Positions 5,796 to 40,028 of a stretch of 45,119 bases of DNA are shown here, one piece after another. The position numbers and the translations under genes were made by a program. Numbering within the stretch: position 1 is the stretch's first letter; each line of letters starts with the position of its first letter. A model generated the notes under the pieces. It saw only the letters and a list, made by a program, of their open reading frames with translations. It ran no database searches and was not told the DNA's origin. This stretch comes from Dhillonvirus LM40P1: the sequence record OZ035746.1; one strand, 5' to 3'.

Positions 5796-5825
5796 TGTTG
5801 TTTCCTCGTTTGTTGGTGTGCAACC

Positions 5826-25825: not shown

Positions 25826-26296
25826 TTATTTAAGTGCGCGAGTTACCAGTGTTTTTTCCATATTGCGGAAGTCTTCCTCGGTCATCTGGATTTTCGACCC
25901 GTCTTCACCGTACAGCGTCACCAGCGGTTGAGCTTTCGCTAAAACTCCCTTCGGCAGCGACCACGCATCAACCTGTTTCTTCAGGCTTTCCAACTGCGCT
26001 GCCGTTACGTCGATCTGGATCTCGTCATGCACAGTTGTGTAAGACTCACCCAGTAGCGCGGAATATGCCACTAAATCCACAATGTTATCTTCCTGGTGTT
26101 TACGGGTCTGGCGTACCAGCTTCAGGCAAATCATAAATACCCAGGCTTCTTGCTCGGTAAGGTCACGACCGGTTAGTGCGTTGAATACGGCAGCAATCTG
26201 TTTAGCGCTGCGTTCTTCTTTGCTGTCATATCCATTTTCTTTCCCGCGCTGTTCCATAGTGGTGGCGGCGTTTTTGCAGTATTCGAATGCTTTCAT
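25826..26296 (-). CDS. hypothetical protein (possibly all-alpha NTP-pyrophosphohydrolase-like)
   Basis: 156-aa ORF with AAGGAGA RBS and the promoter at 26342-26370 upstream; the functional guess rests on weak motif resemblance only. Confidence 0.45.
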   Translation of the reverse strand: MKAFEYCKNAATTMEQRGKENGYDSKEERSAKQIAAVFNALTGRDLTEQEAWVFMICLKLVRQTRKHQEDNIVDLVAYSALLGESYTTVHDEIQIDVTAAQLESLKKQVDAWSLPKGVLAKAQPLVTLYGEDGSKIQMTEEDFRNMEKTLVTRALK

Positions 26297-26374: not shown

Positions 26375-26596
26375 TTATTTTAATTCCTCAATCAAATTGG
26401 CACGGACAATACGGGCCGAGAAGGCATCGCACACAAGATGGCAACGCGCCGTCATGACAAGCCAGCCGGTTAGGTCACGGCCTAGCAATTGCTCCGGGCG
26501 GCTTACCCGCAATACTTTATTTCCAGGGAAAACCTGGTAACGTTTAATGATCTCATCCACGACGCGCGGACTGCGATCGACGACTAAGATATTCAT
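26375..26596 (-). CDS. hypothetical protein (73 aa)
   Basis: ATG 26596 with AAGGAGA RBS; overlaps the 3' end of the methyltransferase gene. Confidence 0.45.
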   Translation of the reverse strand: MNILVVDRSPRVVDEIIKRYQVFPGNKVLRVSRPEQLLGRDLTGWLVMTARCHLVCDAFSARIVRANLIEELK

Positions 26597-27062
26597 GTAG
26601 TTCTCCTTCGCTCATTATCTTGATTTGTGCGCTGCCGTTTGGTGGCGCTTCTTCAAAGATTATCAATTGCTGACACTTGTTGTTGCTCGGTCCAACCTTA
26701 CCGGTGACGGCATGGATAAACCTGATTCGCCAGTCCAGCAATATAATCAGGTTGGCGGTTTTCCGCGCCAGTTTGGCCCACTTCGTGGTCGTGTCCTGGT
26801 TAAGCAGCATTACCGTTTTGCGACCCTGCGATGCGCAAGTCACCCACGGCAGCGGATCCGAATACGGCGGATTGCACCATTTCCACCCGTTTAGCTCTGA
26901 CCAGTCCGCATCAAGCGCGCTGTGCTCTTTCGTGAAGTAGCGCGGTAGCAGATGGTTGTGGTCACTAGCCGCCATGTCATAGCGGAATTTAAACGCCTTG
27001 CGCAGTGGCTTAAATAAAGCTGGCGGCGTGCGCCAGCTATCCTTTTGCTCATTCTCCGTCAT
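26553..27062 (-). CDS. DNA N6-adenine methyltransferase (phage Dam-like)
   Basis: ORF 26553..27284; start placed at ATG 27062 (MTENEQKDSWRTPP...); catalytic NPPY motif in WKWCNPPYSD. Confidence 0.7.
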   Translation of the reverse strand: MTENEQKDSWRTPPALFKPLRKAFKFRYDMAASDHNHLLPRYFTKEHSALDADWSELNGWKWCNPPYSDPLPWVTCASQGRKTVMLLNQDTTTKWAKLARKTANLIILLDWRIRFIHAVTGKVGPSNNKCQQLIIFEEAPPNGSAQIKIMSEGELHEYLSRRSQSARRG

Positions 27063-27513
27063 GCTGCGGGTCCAGTGCGTAGAGTGGGATTTGTTTAGCG
27101 CTTTCCCACAGGCGTTTAATCCGCTCCTGTTCGCCGCTACCCATAGGGCGAATATCGTTGCTGTAGTTGCCGTTGGTTGTGTCGCGCCACGCAATAAGAA
27201 CCAGGTCTTTACGGTCAATCTTCGTTGTGCGGCCTTTCGGGCGGACGTACTCTTCTGCGCGTTTGCATTGCTCGCGCAGGGCATCGGCGGTTATCCTGGT
27301 GAGCGATACGGATGTTGTGTACCCGGTGCGCTGCATAATGGTGGTTAGCTCGCCCAGCAGTTCGAAGCGTTCTTCTAACTCCAGCAATTGCTTGTTGGTG
27401 TCCTGGAATTTTTTATACATATCATCGGCGTGGCTACGTGCTTCTTCCGCTTTCTCGCGCGCCTCAATACACTGTGCTGCCCAATACGCTTTTTCTTCTT
27501 GTAAAATTTTCAT
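27049..27513 (-). CDS. hypothetical protein (coiled-coil N-terminus)
   Basis: 154-aa ORF; GGAGA RBS; TAATG overlap with the upstream gene. Confidence 0.45.
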   Translation of the reverse strand: MKILQEEKAYWAAQCIEAREKAEEARSHADDMYKKFQDTNKQLLELEERFELLGELTTIMQRTGYTTSVSLTRITADALREQCKRAEEYVRPKGRTTKIDRKDLVLIAWRDTTNGNYSNDIRPMGSGEQERIKRLWESAKQIPLYALDPQHDGE

Positions 27514-27755
27514 TAGTTAATCTCCGTCATGCGAATTTCTTTGCGCGGTATAAATTTGCCGTTCATTTCAACCCAGCAAGTGCCATAGCGCCACTGGGTG
27601 TTACGGCCTGTTTGTTCGGGGTAGACGGCCTGGCATTCATATTTATTGGCCTGGTAGATCCACACCGTCGGCAGCAGGAAACAAAAGAATAAGAACAACG
27701 CCATCCATACCCAAAAACGTAAGTCACCGTCGTAATCAAAAAAGAATCGTTTCAT
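27513..27755 (-). CDS. small membrane protein (80 aa)
   Basis: GAGGA RBS; hydrophobic helix FWVWMALFLFFCFLLPTVWIY. Confidence 0.45.
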   Translation of the reverse strand: MKRFFFDYDGDLRFWVWMALFLFFCFLLPTVWIYQANKYECQAVYPEQTGRNTQWRYGTCWVEMNGKFIPRKEIRMTEIN

Positions 27756-27772
27756 CGTTAAATCCTCATATT

Positions 27773-27803
27773 AAAAAAAAAGGGCGTTCCCTTCGGAACA
27801 CCC
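27773..27803 (-). terminator. intrinsic terminator (minus strand) between promoter and gene
   Basis: Minus-strand RNA GGGUGUUCC-GAAG-GGAACGCCC (9-bp stem including a G-U pair) followed by nine U (plus-strand A-run 27773-27781). Confidence 0.65.
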
Positions 27804-27805
27804 TC

Positions 27806-27834
27806 AATATAATGCAACCAATCTCGCAATGCAA
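27806..27834 (-). promoter_or_regulatory. sigma70-like promoter TTGCAT-N17-TATATT (recurring family)
   Basis: Minus-strand reading: TTGCAT (27834..27829), spacer containing ATTGGTTGCA, TATATT (27811..27806); predicted start falls inside the 5' arm of the terminator stem. Confidence 0.5.
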
Positions 27835-27839
27835 CCAAT

Positions 27840-28163
27840 TTATTCGAAGAAATTTGGGTCGCTCATCACATCCACAAGATAAAGGTTGTTAAGGCGGTTG
27901 CCGTAATGGCCTGGCGTGCGCTGACGGCACACAACAGCGTAACCAGGGGGGATGGTATTTCCGGTCGCCAGAATCCACGCCACGCGCGCGCCGTTTAGTG
28001 ATTTACCGTTGTATTCTATGCGGGTGCCGCCATCTGCAGTGTTAAGGCTGCCAATCTTCTGACCGGTAGAATTGAGACGGATAACACCAGTCTGGCTATC
28101 GTAATTAAACAGTTGTTTGGTCAGTGCTACCGAAAAATCAATTGGATCAAAGATAGTGTTCAT
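27840..28163 (-). CDS. HNH endonuclease-like protein (HNH_3/NUMOD4-like, catalytic His apparently absent)
   Basis: GAGGAAA RBS; segment ARVAWILATGNTIPPGYAVVCRQ...GNRLNNLYLV follows the HNH_3 pattern but the usual His-containing core is not evident. Confidence 0.4.
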   Translation of the reverse strand: MNTIFDPIDFSVALTKQLFNYDSQTGVIRLNSTGQKIGSLNTADGGTRIEYNGKSLNGARVAWILATGNTIPPGYAVVCRQRTPGHYGNRLNNLYLVDVMSDPNFFE

Positions 28164-28876
28164 TTTAAATTTTCCTCATTGACTGCAATTGCGAAGCCGC
28201 GCGGTGTGAGCGACCTGATTAATTTAGTGCGGGCGGACTTACCACCGAGCAGACTATACTGTTTGGAGTAACCTTTTTCAACAAATACCGGCTTCTTCTC
28301 CGGCATCCTGAAGCCGTTCCCAGTCCATAAGCAAGTCAGCTTCGGGTATGAGTCACGCGCGTTGATGTATTCCGGGAACAGCGGGTGCACATCGTCTTCC
28401 GGCAGATAGCCGCCATACTCCCACGGGCCGAACGAGTGGTCCGGCTTGCGCCACTGGGTGGATAGCACACTGCGCGGATTCTCTATCATGTATGGCACTT
28501 CGAAGAAGTCACCGAGAAAGGCCGCAATCTTCGCCGTGCGCACGGCCTTAAGCTGGAAAGCCGGGTCTTTAGCGCGTTTGCGCGGGAAAGCTGGCGCGCC
28601 GCTAACTGCCAGGTCGGTGCACGGCGGAAAGGCGTAAATAATATCAGGCGTGCCAAACTCACCCGCCATAGCGCGGTCTACGAAGTCCAGATCGATAAAC
28701 ACGTTCTTATAACGAATGCCGCGCCCGTAAAGCCGGTAGTGATTGTAGGAGCCGTGGTCTGCCCCGTCGAAGTTAAAACAGGTGCACTTATGCCCCATCT
28801 CGGCAGCACGCTCGATCATAAGGCCGCTGCCGTCGAATAATGACCAGATGTTTAGTATCCTAACTCGCTTATTCAC
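28160..28876 (-). CDS. DNA cytosine-5 methyltransferase-like protein (short, 238 aa)
   Basis: GTG start overlapping the helicase stop; motif I SLFDGSG, motif IV IYAFPPCTDLAVSG (PC catalytic Cys), motif VI ENPRSV; too short to carry a typical target-recognition domain. Confidence 0.6.
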   Translation of the reverse strand: MNKRVRILNIWSLFDGSGLMIERAAEMGHKCTCFNFDGADHGSYNHYRLYGRGIRYKNVFIDLDFVDRAMAGEFGTPDIIYAFPPCTDLAVSGAPAFPRKRAKDPAFQLKAVRTAKIAAFLGDFFEVPYMIENPRSVLSTQWRKPDHSFGPWEYGGYLPEDDVHPLFPEYINARDSYPKLTCLWTGNGFRMPEKKPVFVEKGYSKQYSLLGGKSARTKLIRSLTPRGFAIAVNEENLK

Positions 28877-30333
28877 TTACGACCTCGCTTCTTCTCTTTC
28901 ATATATTCCATCAGTTCATCCTGGATGTCGCGCTTACCATCACGGCGGCTTGCCACTAACTCGTCGAGCGTGCCGCGGGCCTGGATAATGTAGACGAATA
29001 CCGGGCGCGGGTGTCCGGCCTGCATCTGGCGCACCGGTCCGATACGTTCGACGATCTGCGCGAAGTGCTCAAAGTTCCACGTATCCGAGAAGATAGCGAG
29101 GTGGTGTCCGCCGTCCTGTAAGTTAAGACCGTGGCCTGCCGATGCCGGGTGTGCAAACATGATCGGAATCTCGCCCCGGTTCCACGCTTCCATATCCTTA
29201 ACGCCTTGCTTGCCCTTTCCCATTGCGACACCCTGCGGGAATTTCTTCTTAAGGCGGGCTAGGTCGTGCTTGTACTGGTAGGCCACAAGCAGCGGTGCGC
29301 CGTTAAGTTCTTCTACGATACTTTCCAGGGCGTCAAGTTTGGCGTCGTGGATTTTCTCCCACTCGTCGGTCCGCTCGCCGTCGTCGTCAACCTTATACAC
29401 AGCGCCAGATGCAAGCTGGAGGCATTTAATCGTCTTAGCGGCAGCGTTGGCGGCCTCCACTGTTCCGCTTTCCAGTTCGGCAAATAGCTCGCTCTCGAAC
29501 TGGTCGTAAATCTTGCGGGCTTTCTTCGGCAGGTCAACCAGCACCGGCGTGTAAATCGGCTTGTCACACCCGAAGTATTCAGCCGCGTCAACCGTTAGCG
29601 AAATATCAGCCAGCTTTGCGTGAATCTCTTTTTCGGAGTTTTTCAGCGGGGAGTGCTGCATAGTGAAGCTGCCAGGCGCAACCGGCTTACTTATGAACCA
29701 GCGGTCGGTGAATGCTTTATAGCTACTGCCGAGGCGTTCGCCACCGTCAACAAACCAGTTCTGCCCCCACACATCCTTAAGCCCGTTGGGTGCTGGCGTA
29801 CCGGTCAGGTTAATCCAGCGCTTGACGTGCTTATGTGCGATCGCCGCCAGTGCGCGAGCACGTTTACTGCCCTGCTTACTGCGGTAGCCTTTCAGCTTAG
29901 TGGACTCATCGGCAACAACGACCGTAAAAGGCCACTCCTCGCCGCAATAGTTCACAAGCCACTCAACCACATCATAGTTGATGCACACGACGTTCGCGCC
30001 GCTCTCAAGCGCTGTAATGCGGTCCTTCTCCGGTCCGGTGCCGTCTACTACCTGAAGCGATGAGAATCCCCATTTATCTTGTTCCGGGGGCCACGTACCG
30101 GACGCAACGCGCAACGGGGCCAGCACCAGCACGCGGTCTTCTCCGTGGTTCAGGATGCCGGTCTGGAACATCTTGTTCAGCGCCCACATGGTAGCGCCAG
30201 TCTTTCCCGATCCCATCGTCGCCCAGATATTACAGCGGGCGTGTTTAATGATGAAAGACGTGATTAACTTTTGGTACTCGCGCCTGCGAAAACGTGCCAT
30301 CTTGTTACGCCTTTTTCCAGACTTCTGTTTCAT
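28873..30333 (-). CDS. SNF2/DEAD-like superfamily 2 helicase
   Basis: ORF 28873..30381; ATG 30333 with GAGGAAT RBS (ATG 30300 also possible); Walker A-like ATMGSGKTG; DExx-type VVADESTKLK. Confidence 0.7.
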   Translation of the reverse strand: MKQKSGKRRNKMARFRRREYQKLITSFIIKHARCNIWATMGSGKTGATMWALNKMFQTGILNHGEDRVLVLAPLRVASGTWPPEQDKWGFSSLQVVDGTGPEKDRITALESGANVVCINYDVVEWLVNYCGEEWPFTVVVADESTKLKGYRSKQGSKRARALAAIAHKHVKRWINLTGTPAPNGLKDVWGQNWFVDGGERLGSSYKAFTDRWFISKPVAPGSFTMQHSPLKNSEKEIHAKLADISLTVDAAEYFGCDKPIYTPVLVDLPKKARKIYDQFESELFAELESGTVEAANAAAKTIKCLQLASGAVYKVDDDGERTDEWEKIHDAKLDALESIVEELNGAPLLVAYQYKHDLARLKKKFPQGVAMGKGKQGVKDMEAWNRGEIPIMFAHPASAGHGLNLQDGGHHLAIFSDTWNFEHFAQIVERIGPVRQMQAGHPRPVFVYIIQARGTLDELVASRRDGKRDIQDELMEYMKEKKRGRK

Positions 30334-30526
30334 GGTGCCAATTCCTCGTCGTAGCGGTCCAGTTAAATTCGTGCCCCACATGCACGCCGGTCGCCCGGAA
30401 GCCTTTAAACTTCTGCCAGCACACAGTTAACGGCAGCGGCTCGCGCATTGCGGCGATATACCATACGCGATCGCCGGGTTTGCAGTCGCCAAGTGTGGTA
30501 AGGCGGTAATGTTCTTTCATCGTCAT
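30305..30526 (-). CDS. hypothetical protein (73 aa)
   Basis: ATG 30526 immediately after a terminator T-run; overlaps the helicase start region; weak RBS. Confidence 0.35.
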   Translation of the reverse strand: MTMKEHYRLTTLGDCKPGDRVWYIAAMREPLPLTVCWQKFKGFRATGVHVGHEFNWTATTRNWHHETEVWKKA

Positions 30527-30562: not shown

Positions 30563-30736
30563 TTATTCGCGTTCTTCACGATAGCGGCGCTGCCGTTCTC
30601 GTTCGGCCTTGTTCCGGCACGATTTACACTGCGCACGATACCCGTCGGGGCTACGTGCTGTTTTGCCAGTGTACTTATGAAATTGCGATAGCGGTTTAAC
30701 ACAGCCGCATTGGCTGCAACGTTTTTCTTCAATCAT
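30563..30736 (-). CDS. zinc-ribbon protein (57 aa)
   Basis: ORF 30563..30766 (GTG); ATG 30736 with GAGG RBS; CSQCGC...CKSC four-Cys motif and a basic tail. Confidence 0.45.
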   Translation of the reverse strand: MIEEKRCSQCGCVKPLSQFHKYTGKTARSPDGYRAQCKSCRNKAERERQRRYREERE

Positions 30737-30766
30737 CTTAAATGCCTCGTTAGTCCTAACCTGCAC

Positions 30767-39945: not shown

Positions 39946-40028
39946 GCGCGCATTGGTTGCCAATATGGTTAATTTGTGCGCGCATTGGTTGCCAGATTGG
40001 GCATTAAATCTATATCGCATTGGTTGCC
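39946..40028 (+). repeat. three direct iterons GCGCGCATTGGTTGCC(A)
   Basis: 39946-39962 and 39978-39994 are identical 17-mers; a shorter third copy TCGCATTGGTTGCC lies at 40015-40028; spacing about 32 and 35 bp. Confidence 0.65.

Follow-up and report, generated by a model that had tools for sequence, protein, structure and literature searches.

Two predicted orphan DNA methyltransferases and a probably non-cutting HNH-like protein in Dhillonvirus LM40P1

What do the two DNA methyltransferase genes of Dhillonvirus LM40P1, and the HNH-like gene found with them, encode, and what could they provide for the phage? The window analysed is the whole 45,119-nucleotide stretch of sequence record OZ035746.1. 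As originally predicted, genes for a Dcm-type, an HNH-like and a Dam-type protein lie exactly inside 26553-28876, all three on the minus strand; the interval holds two further genes, for a membrane protein and a coiled-coil protein. The features of the locus and its borders are, in the direction of transcription:

28873 to 30381, minus strand: SNF2-family helicase (PF00176, E 1.7e-9; "DNA helicase" in annotated relatives)
28160 to 28876, minus strand: short Dcm-type C5-cytosine DNA methyltransferase, 238 aa (motifs I, IV and VI; phrog_757)
27840 to 28163, minus strand: HNH_3 / I-HmuI-like protein, 107 aa (phrog_99, "HNH endonuclease", E 1e-13)
27806 to 27839, minus strand: promoter-like element with two copies of ATTGGTTGCA (27839-27830 and 27822-27813)
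27772 to 27805, minus strand: intrinsic-terminator-like hairpin (11-bp stem, GAAG loop, then nine T)
27513 to 27755, minus strand: predicted membrane protein, 80 aa (phrog_18961, E 2e-45)
27049 to 27513, minus strand: coiled-coil protein, 154 aa (phrog_10530, E 3.3e-71)
26553 to 27062, minus strand: Dam-type N6-adenine DNA methyltransferase, small phage type, 169 aa (PF05869, phrog_111)
26375 to 26596, minus strand: Ksap1 homologue, 73 aa (58% identity to SECphi18 gp51)

The three genes all have many homologues and evolve with a dN/dS of 0.05-0.12 relative to two related phages, i.e., under strong purifying selection, and their detection is therefore not a matter of chance. Together they are the standard DNA-methylation set of a Dhillonvirus coliphage, an unremarkable one for which many records already carry annotations. 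Taken as a whole, the locus is probably best explained by two orphan methyltransferases that place site-specific marks, accompanied by a domesticated HNH-like protein that does not cut. The original prediction was in part confirmed in what it observed and in part supported in how it read the observation.

The helicase gene is directly upstream of the Dcm-type gene, the GTG start codon of which overlaps the helicase stop codon (GTGA). The ATG of the HNH-like gene overlaps the Dcm stop codon (ATGA), and the HNH-like protein would be translationally coupled to the Dcm gene. It was first proposed that these genes and the Dam gene belong to the same operon. This is doubtful, since a conserved terminator-like hairpin (27805-27772), preceded by a promoter-like element, follows the HNH-like gene ahead of the next one and so separates Dcm and HNH-like from Dam. 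The stem of the hairpin is kept in relatives through compensatory changes. The promoter-like element consists of TTGCAT (27834-27829), a 17-nt spacer and TATATT (27811-27806), and its 10-mer ATTGGTTGCA occurs 21 times compared to 3.7 expected. The same promoter-like arrangement is found at 26375-26342 and also in SECphi18 and YD-2008.s. The array also holds replication genes (polymerase, VRR-NUC and helicase) as well as a Lar-like restriction-alleviation gene 1.7 kb upstream. The locus probably represents a conserved section of the leftward replication gene array of Dhillonvirus, the one devoted to DNA modification. The gene for the 80-aa membrane protein is accessory; it is absent from SECphi18, where its position holds only an 81-nt gap. 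The 154-aa coiled-coil protein has no Pfam match and gives only weak Rad50 coiled-coil matches in NCBIfam; the "DNA ligase" label that it carries in relatives by way of phrog_10530 is unsupported. The gene for the Ksap1 homologue shares 44 nt with the 3' end of the Dam gene, and its SECphi18 counterpart, gp51, is a 74-aa protein encoded between methyltransferase and phosphatase genes (PMC11564622).

The 238-aa protein was described as a truncated C5-methyltransferase-like protein with motifs I, IV (PC) and VI (ENV). All three motifs are present, with the correction that motif VI reads ENP, the third residue being Pro and not Val. Among 65 homologues S17 and G18 of the AdoMet-binding loop (FxGxG; F14-D-G16-S17-G18) are invariant while F14 and G16 are conserved in at least 90%. 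P85-C86 of motif IV is found in the context FPPC, and the catalytic Cys (C86), the loss of which on proper alignment had been regarded as the critical point, is invariant, as is E132-N133-P134 of motif VI. Also invariant are K179, equivalent to K175 of the Dcm of phage K42, and with it R221, S222 and R226 in the putative DNA-contact C-terminal part. Motif VIII (QxRxR) was not found in the 238-aa protein, where Q141-W-R143 and the invariant K179 are candidates, and only about 20-30 residues lie between the strand at 181-186 and the C-terminal helices, i.e., there is no separate target-recognition domain. None of this is the result of truncation, as homologues measure 225-250 aa over their full length in a family that is consistently about 230 aa, the match to phrog_757 is full-length and co-linear (residues 8-236, E 1.2e-79), and coverage of the protein is 80% or more in 1378 phage records. 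The enzyme is of a natively short, full-length Dcm type with a DNMT3-like minimal architecture, and should be annotated as such. Its relationship to C5 methyltransferases rests on Pfam matches of family members, on a fold search, in which the C5 methyltransferase fold was found, and on the K42 homologue. The 238-aa protein itself gave no match to PF00145 at E up to 0.1; 36 of the 65 homologues matched it at E up to 1, over motifs I-IV, and one of them (P0017) reached 28.5 bits (cut-off 22, profile positions 4-92). Alignment of the family with a single canonical C5 methylase (eiAU gp16) by hhalign was not meaningful, and sequence searches of the PDB, with single sequences and with profiles, returned nothing for the Dcm-like, HNH-like or Dam protein. 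Identity to the catalytic domains of DNMT3A and DNMT3B and to bacterial C5 methyltransferases such as M.HhaI (PF00145) is 13-15%; compared to these the 238-aa protein is about 40-90 residues shorter, lacks a recognisable motif VIII and has ENP in place of ENV.

The product of the enzyme is most probably 5-methylcytosine, as predicted from a homologue with 54% identity. This homologue, Bas06_0055 (the Dcm of phage KarlJaspers), is co-linear over the full length, and its near-identical K42 orthologue triggers retron Ec86/Eco1 (bioRxiv 10.1101/2023.08.16.553469). The Bas06/K42 enzymes and the LM40P1 enzyme belong to one family, have nearly the same length (236 and 238 aa), share the ENP motif as well as the catalytic Cys and Glu (C86/E132 align with C82/E128), and are orphan genes in small coliphages. 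They differ in that Bas06, a member of the Drexlerviridae as opposed to Dhillonvirus, has other neighbour genes and no HNH-like partner, and in that K176, one of the two mutated lysines of K42 Dcm, is Leu in the 238-aa protein. K42 Dcm raised the 5-methylcytosine content of retron Ec86 msDNA as measured by LC-MS, and a quadruple mutant that included C82A and E128A was inactive (bioRxiv 10.1101/2023.08.16.553469). Cys86 would attack C6 of a flipped cytosine and Glu132 would protonate N3, upon which the methyl group would move to C5. The original prediction also considered a different chemistry. Transfer of carboxymethyl or hydroxymethyl groups, or an RNA substrate as for DNMT2, is very unlikely, given the 5-methylcytosine formed by the co-linear K42 homologue and the family-wide invariance of ENP, which includes that homologue; moreover, matches pointing to such chemistry score no better than those to ordinary DNA C5 methyltransferases.

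Methylation would most probably take place at CCWGG, a sequence that the genome shows no sign of avoiding (149 occurrences compared to 70.7 expected). Defence was lost when either C of the msDNA CCTGG site was mutated (bioRxiv 10.1101/2023.08.16.553469), and the tight conservation of K179, R221, S222 and R226 in the putative DNA-contact C-terminus likewise speaks against a departure from this site. It is nevertheless conceivable, if rather improbable, that the short enzyme has a target different from CCWGG or favours DNA that is hairpin, single-stranded or hemimethylated, since so small a recognition region, placed between the last core strand and the C-terminal helices, would relax or change its specificity. 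With the K42 enzyme, the one that has been characterised, it shares only 54% identity, and the K42 target site was itself deduced from mutagenesis of the msDNA and from the motif of the host Dcm, not from genome-wide mapping (bioRxiv 10.1101/2023.08.16.553469). In addition the host Dcm of MG1655 does not trigger the retron even though the same CCTGG site is present (bioRxiv 10.1101/2023.08.16.553469), so that the enzyme of the phage may prefer another site or another substrate.

For the second methyltransferase, the prediction of a Dam-like enzyme with an NPPY motif held. The protein matches PF05869 (E 2.7e-37, 128.5 bits, cut-off 28.1, profile positions 2-150 of 169) and phrog_111 (E 4e-54), with a score for the TIGR01712 equivalog of 87.4 bits, below the cut-off of 97.05. 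NPPY is found at residues 64-67 (WCNPPYSD) and aligns with NPPY of the Dam proteins of Bas06 and eiAU. The open reading frame first assigned to the gene, 26553-27284, is over-extended, the Pfam match beginning only at its residue 74. The true ATG is at 27062, to which the annotated start should be moved; this gives a protein of 169 aa and a 14-nt overlap with the stop of the upstream 154-aa gene, as in annotated relatives. Omega for the Dam gene is 0.09-0.12. The specificity of T1 Dam is GATC, and the LM40P1 enzyme would use its NPPY motif to form N6-methyladenine, probably at GATC as well. The frequency of GATC in the genome (149 compared to 158 expected) is neutral and uninformative on specificity. 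With the Bas06 Dam, which is of the T1 type, the protein shares 30% identity, and with the eiAU Dam 39%. The T1-type enzyme (Schneider-Scherzer et al., 1990, as cited in PMC3025963) shares NPPY and the small size without a separate recognition domain, and differs in length (233 aa compared to 169 aa). Hia5-type non-specific adenine methyltransferases were also considered as relatives; these are DPPY enzymes with a target-recognition region at about residues 80-170, and nothing in that description tied them to the Dam protein.

Two orphan methyltransferases were originally taken to point to protection against host restriction. Both are orphan: no cognate restriction endonuclease gene was found in the neighbourhood of either, which consists of the helicase, the dyad-less HNH-like protein (see below), the membrane protein, the coiled-coil protein and Ksap1. 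Anti-restriction is the usual and a reasonable reading of this. Both enzymes are expected to be AdoMet-dependent and to be made during replication, so that they would mark new phage DNA independently of the host Dam and Dcm, and the marks would give site-specific protection against those restriction enzymes that are blocked by them; the predicted 5-methylcytosine would shield the phage from CCWGG-cutting, methylation-sensitive enzymes. Any protection is at most site-specific. The cost would be that the cytosine methylation predicted from the Dcm gene makes the phage a likely trigger of retron Ec86-type defences. No methylation data for LM40P1 or any Dhillonvirus were found in the literature searched. 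In the BASEL collection Dhillonvirus phages were comparatively restriction-sensitive (PMC8594841), and within the related Drexlerviridae resistance to restriction did not follow in any simple way from the methyltransferase genes (PMC8594841). The latter observation, together with the position of both methyltransferases among replication genes (polymerase, VRR-NUC and helicase), would suit a role in phage DNA metabolism instead of anti-restriction, e.g., full methylation of the phage DNA as an escape from MutH or SeqA, control of when replication or packaging takes place, or regulation of genes. Deletions in KpAvs2 escaper phages reach into the gene upstream of ksap1 (PMC11564622), which is the Dam gene, and Dam is therefore dispensable in the laboratory, in line with such a role. 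A role in DNA metabolism is still the less likely of the two, as protection is the classical task of orphan Dam and Dcm enzymes in phages and the Lar-like restriction-alleviation gene is part of the same array. Furthermore, neither GATC nor CCWGG is a target of the restriction systems that BASEL tested, and missing protection there consequently says little.

The HNH-like protein was predicted to lack an evident catalytic His and to be, perhaps, an inactive derivative. It scores 12.0 bits against PF13392 (HNH_3), below the cut-off of 24.8, and covers only profile positions 5-21 of 46, whereas I-HmuI scores 40.7 bits over positions 2-45. In the homing endonuclease I-HmuI of phage SPO1 (PDB 1u3e; NUMOD4 + HNH_3) H75 is the general base and D74 binds metal. 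These residues correspond by hhalign to C79 and V78 of the HNH-like protein, i.e., the catalytic Asp-His dyad is lost; the profile-profile alignment used for this mapping has a low probability (1.6%) and is trusted only because the V78/C79 register agrees with the Pfam and PHROG coordinates. Aligned with I-HmuI alone, the family gave only a 10-residue match, and an HMM of 120 I-HmuI relatives gave no significant score against it. I-HmuI H56 corresponds to A59. N93-L94, which align with N87-L88 of I-HmuI (the second-strand Asn and NL motif), are invariant, and the last metal ligand (I-HmuI N96) could have left a trace in D102 or N104. The finger helix and the C-terminal DNA-binding domains of I-HmuI are missing: no helix of the beta-beta-alpha-metal finger is predicted after the strand at 94-101, and the protein ends at 107. 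The most conserved stretch is R80-Q-R-x-P-G-H86-Y-x-N-R-x-x-N93-L-Y-x-V-D98...D102-P-N104. Within it H86-Y87 is an invariant pair in the hairpin loop, which counts against the best explanation of the locus as it is unaccounted for by it.

An active nuclease with a non-canonical site, e.g., one built from the invariant H86 with N93 and D102 or N104, is unlikely. H86 invites the idea, being part of the most conserved stretch and retained in the Eiauvirus homologue too, and an alternative hand alignment can set it on I-HmuI H75. That alignment was judged less likely: in the profile alignment GNRLNNL falls on the canonical DNRxxNL motif, so that H86 comes to lie in the hairpin loop and C79 takes the place of the His. 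C79 is in turn Leu in two protein clusters (P0275 and P0276), no acidic residue stands before H86, the protein stops three residues past N104 with no helix to follow the second strand, and the core fragment has no match to any HNH profile. More probably the protein is a relative of I-HmuI-type enzymes, now without the Asp-His dyad and the metal-binding helix, and most likely binds DNA without cutting it. Labels that imply an active HNH or homing endonuclease should be avoided for the 107-aa gene.

Loss of the catalytic residues, together with the homing endonuclease annotation in relatives, might also suggest a functionless gene in decay, left over from a homing endonuclease or from a restriction enzyme that was once paired with the methylase. 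This is extremely improbable, and the pseudogene and remnant restriction-modification readings were rejected on distribution and dN/dS. The gene is present in essentially every Dhillonvirus (about 157 records) and in Eiauvirus, its product is 105-107 aa in all protein clusters except for one frameshifted record, 47 positions are invariant, and dN/dS is 0.07 at a dS of about 1.8. It is thus a fixed core gene, unlike a mobile intron or a free-standing homing gene, and from its presence in essentially every Dhillonvirus and in Eiauvirus it is probably domesticated and nuclease-dead. Absence of the dyad combined with an omega of 0.07 fits the proposed inactive derivative, provided that it has acquired a new role. 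In the whole collection the HNH-like protein occurs in 161 phage records compared to 1483 for the short Dcm family. Fixed next to a cytosine methylase gene in each of two phage genera, this strongly constrained HNH_3 derivative without the dyad would be a small, clean case of homing-endonuclease domestication.

It is tempting to speculate that the new role is related to cytosine methylation, because the protein would be translationally coupled to a minimal Dcm and stands beside an unrelated C5 methylase in Eiauvirus. The module of Edwardsiella phage eiAU-183 reads helicase - gp17 - C5 methylase - Dam, and the two genera share the helicase, the HNH-like gene and two methylases. Eiauvirus gp17 is 40% identical to the HNH-like protein, is likewise without the dyad and bears an extra N-terminal segment; the cytosine methylase beside it is canonical (330 aa, PCQ and QxRxR). 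A domesticated DNA-binding module could serve as a targeting partner of a Dcm that is almost without a recognition domain of its own, loosely like DNMT3L helping DNMT3A, or as a reader of 5-methylcytosine or of T:G mismatches, in analogy with E. coli, where dcm and vsr form an overlapping pair. This more specific role is a long shot.

All three minus-strand ORFs of the predicted DNA-modification cluster were found in the ORF list at the coordinates proposed, and two further genes inside the interval, which the original prediction had passed over, complete the following set:

28160-28876, minus strand: 238-aa ORF, short Dcm-type C5-cytosine methyltransferase (ORF list)
27840-28163, minus strand: 107-aa ORF, HNH-like protein (ORF list)
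27513-27755, minus strand: predicted membrane protein of 80 aa, between the HNH-like gene and Dam
27049-27513, minus strand: coiled-coil protein of 154 aa, between the HNH-like gene and Dam
26553-27284, minus strand: 243-aa ORF, Dam in over-extended form (ORF list)

The 2.7 kb around the cluster is 94% identical at the DNA level to two Dhillonvirus LM40P1 records and 77-82% identical to more than 100 further Dhillonvirus coliphages. As the LM40P1 records measure 45,013-45,041 bases and the window 45,119, the window is probably the entire genome. Annotated relatives have in common a minus-strand array of DNA polymerase, VRR-NUC nuclease, Lar-like protein, SNF2 helicase, "DNA methyltransferase", "HNH endonuclease", a small ORF, "DNA ligase", Dam, another small ORF and a kinase/phosphatase, so the cluster belongs to a conserved module that has been annotated repeatedly. 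Every component is a member of a described family, and many GenBank records label those of the module as Dcm-like methyltransferase, HNH or homing endonuclease, and Dam. Ratios of dN/dS (Nei-Gojobori, against the relatives YD-2008.s and Bas83) were lowest in the C5-like gene (0.05), followed by the HNH-like gene (0.07) and Dam (0.09-0.12); all three thus encode functional proteins, even though dS is close to saturation in some pairs. The "DNA ligase" label given to the 154-aa protein in several records traces to phrog_10530; the protein has no Pfam match and only weak NCBIfam matches of the Rad50 coiled-coil type, and the label looks like a propagated mis-annotation.

The 238-aa protein matched nothing in Pfam and NCBIfam, while phrog_757 "DNA methyltransferase" covers it end to end (E 1.2e-79). 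Its family comprises 1482 clusters at 90% identity, or 784 representatives at 50%, and is spread over 1483 phage records (Escherichia, Klebsiella, Salmonella and others). Most full-length members are 225-260 aa long, so 238 aa is the native size and the earlier description of the gene as truncated is wrong. PF00145 was matched at E up to 1 by 36 of 65 close homologues, and one of these, P0017 (65% identical to the 238-aa protein), scores above the gathering threshold in a match to profile positions 4-92, i.e., motifs I to IV. In the alignment of 65 sequences the invariant residues are S17 and G18 (motif I), C86 (PC), E132-N133-P134 (motif VI), K179, R221, S222 and R226. Motifs I and PC were thus correctly recognised and the catalytic cysteine, whose loss would have spoken against a methyltransferase, is retained as C86; motif VI reads ENP, not ENV as proposed. 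AlphaFold models the protein confidently (pLDDT 92.2, pTM 0.90), and the Foldseek matches listed are catalytic domains of DNMT3 and DNMT1, with DNMT3A/3B first (probability 1.00). Between the last core strand and the C-terminal helices there are no more than about 20-30 residues, so the recognition region is minimal and most like that of DNMT3.

A relative of this protein has been characterised in K42, a phage with 95.4% identity to KarlJaspers (Bas06) (bioRxiv 10.1101/2023.08.16.553469). Four of four K42 escapers of retron Ec86 carried mutations disrupting, or potentially disrupting, the 711-bp dcm gene; LC-MS showed increased 5mC on msDNA upon expression of K42 Dcm, a C82A/E128A/K175A/K176A mutant had no activity, and retron defence was lost when the CCTGG site of the msDNA was mutated (bioRxiv 10.1101/2023.08.16.553469). 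The product of the 711-bp gene of Bas06 is 54% identical to the 238-aa protein over 231 aligned residues, and C82, E128 and K175 correspond to C86, E132 and K179. By this analogy the enzyme class and chemistry may be regarded as known, and the different chemistry considered earlier is unlikely, as the K42 homologue makes 5mC. The site of K42 Dcm was deduced from the host Dcm motif and mutagenesis rather than mapped (bioRxiv 10.1101/2023.08.16.553469), and CCWGG is likewise a putative target for the window's Dcm. CCWGG is not avoided in the genome (149 sites against 70.7 ± 8.3 expected), a result that fits protection without proving it. Over the whole window the count is about twice that of dinucleotide-preserving shuffles, a ratio in which codon usage is not separated from selection.

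The 107-aa protein matches phrog_99 "HNH endonuclease" (E 1e-13), and Pfam HNH_3 at 12 bits (cut-off 24.8) over residues 60-77, profile positions 5-21, so that the match ends just short of the catalytic dyad. The reference was I-HmuI, the HNH_3 homing endonuclease of phage SPO1 (sequence identical to PDB 1u3e), whose catalytic residues we take to be D74, H75 and N96. On the phrog_99 profile, I-HmuI residue r falls ungapped at position r+105, and G53 and D98 of the 107-aa protein fall at positions 155 and 197. A profile-profile alignment with 120 I-HmuI relatives, of low probability but in a register that agrees with the HNH_3 and phrog_99 mappings, pairs A59 with H56, V78 with D74, C79 with H75 and N93 with N87; the C79 position is Leu in two clusters. 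Residues 73-107 alone matched no HNH PHROG, against 17 for the equivalent I-HmuI fragment. Aligned by hand, the invariant H86 can instead be set on H75; this placement is less likely, given the good fit of G88-N-R-L-N-N93-L to the canonical DNRxxNL motif. The inactive HNH derivative of the original prediction is supported by the alignment, which puts V78/C79 at the dyad, and the 107-aa protein is probably a domesticated, nuclease-dead DNA-binding derivative.

All records of the 107-aa protein are from Dhillonvirus (about 157) or Eiauvirus. It is 105-107 aa long in all clusters save one frameshifted record, and always follows the helicase and lies beside a cytosine methylase. In Eiauvirus eiAU-183 the methylase next to it is 330 aa long and of the canonical C5 type, with PCQ and QxRxR motifs. 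Phage records with a member of the short Dcm family number 1483, against 161 with the HNH-like protein, Bas06 has the short Dcm and no HNH-like neighbour, and K42 Dcm alone is enough for activity (bioRxiv 10.1101/2023.08.16.553469); the HNH-like protein is therefore dispensable for Dcm. The homologue gp17 of the Edwardsiella phage eiAU-183 (L004 3366-3821) is extended at its N-terminus by a segment with a weak match to the NUMOD-like DNA-binding domain at the C-terminal end of I-HmuI (PF22083, E 0.0019). The segment may be what is left of an ancestral full-length homing endonuclease, or the start may be mis-set.

The assignment of a Dam-type methyltransferase with NPPY holds: PF05869 (128.5 bits) and phrog_111 (E 4e-54) both match, TIGR01712 scores just under its cut-off, and the NPPY aligns with those of the T1-type Dam of Bas06 (30% identity) and the eiAU Dam (39% identity). 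The extent 26553-27284 does not hold, as the PF05869 match starts at residue 74 of the 243-aa ORF, which is over-extended; the ATG at 27062 gives a protein of 169 aa whose gene shares its first 14 nt with the end of the upstream 154-aa gene, an arrangement also present in YD-2008.s. T1 Dam is specific for GATC. By analogy this would be the expected site here, specificity not being readable from sequence, and GATC frequency in the window is neutral (149 sites against 158 expected). A reference for T1 Dam is cited in PMC3025963.

Both methyltransferases had been placed in the same operon. Start and stop codons overlap between helicase and Dcm (GTGA) and between Dcm and the HNH-like gene (ATGA), and genes overlap again between the 154-aa gene and Dam and between Dam and a downstream Ksap1 homologue (44 nt). 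Between the two groups the following features were found:

between the HNH-like stop at 27840 and the next ATG at 27755, minus strand: two copies of the 10-mer ATTGGTTGCA
between 27840 and 27755, minus strand: promoter-like TTGCAT-17-TATATT
between 27840 and 27755, minus strand: hairpin with an 11-bp stem, then nine T

SECphi18 and YD-2008.s keep this layout, with compensatory stem changes. The methyltransferases therefore probably lie in separate, adjacent transcription units rather than in one operon. With the -10 element directly preceding the hairpin, RNA initiated at this site would presumably miss the hairpin's 5' arm. The 80-aa gene is absent in SECphi18 (81-nt gap) and present in YD-2008.s and Bas83; it is therefore an accessory gene, inserted directly after the promoter/terminator element. 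With one mismatch allowed, ATTGGTTGCA occurs 21 times in the window against 3.7 expected, for example at 5819/5833, 21953/21970, 26349/26366, 27813/27830 and 30779/30791 (minus strand) and at 39952/39984/40019 and 40390/40421 (plus strand). The copies are mostly paired, with a distance of 12-35 nt between starts (in three minus-strand pairs it is 17 nt). Many pairs are intergenic, and at two places TATATT follows the pair; the pattern resembles a promoter or operator signature specific to the phage.

The proposed protection against host restriction is reasonable and unproven. In BASEL phenotyping, methyltransferase genes were not simply linked to restriction resistance in the related Drexlerviridae, and Dhillonvirus phages were described as comparatively restriction-sensitive (PMC8594841). 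A 67-aa zinc-ribbon protein in the same leftward array (30563-30766, minus strand; phrog_5558 "Lar-like restriction alleviation protein", E 1.9e-16) adds to the anti-restriction theme. The Ksap1 homologue downstream of Dam (26375-26596, minus strand; 73 aa, 58% identity) is related to a Dhillonvirus protein known as a direct binding partner and activator of the Klebsiella defence protein Avs2 (PMC11564622). Three residues are known whose change abolishes activation (PMC11564622); the equivalent of K30 is Leu here, and those of L39 and F60 are kept. KpAvs2 escapers have deletions into the gene upstream of ksap1, which is Dam (PMC11564622), so Dam is dispensable under laboratory conditions. Further downstream, the DUF6378 gene (25826-26296, minus strand) shares only about 22-24% identity with the gene that YD-2008.s and Bas83 have, at the same length, in the syntenic position. 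For most relatives the DNA match, too, stops at about 26377; this marks a mosaic boundary or a non-orthologous replacement.
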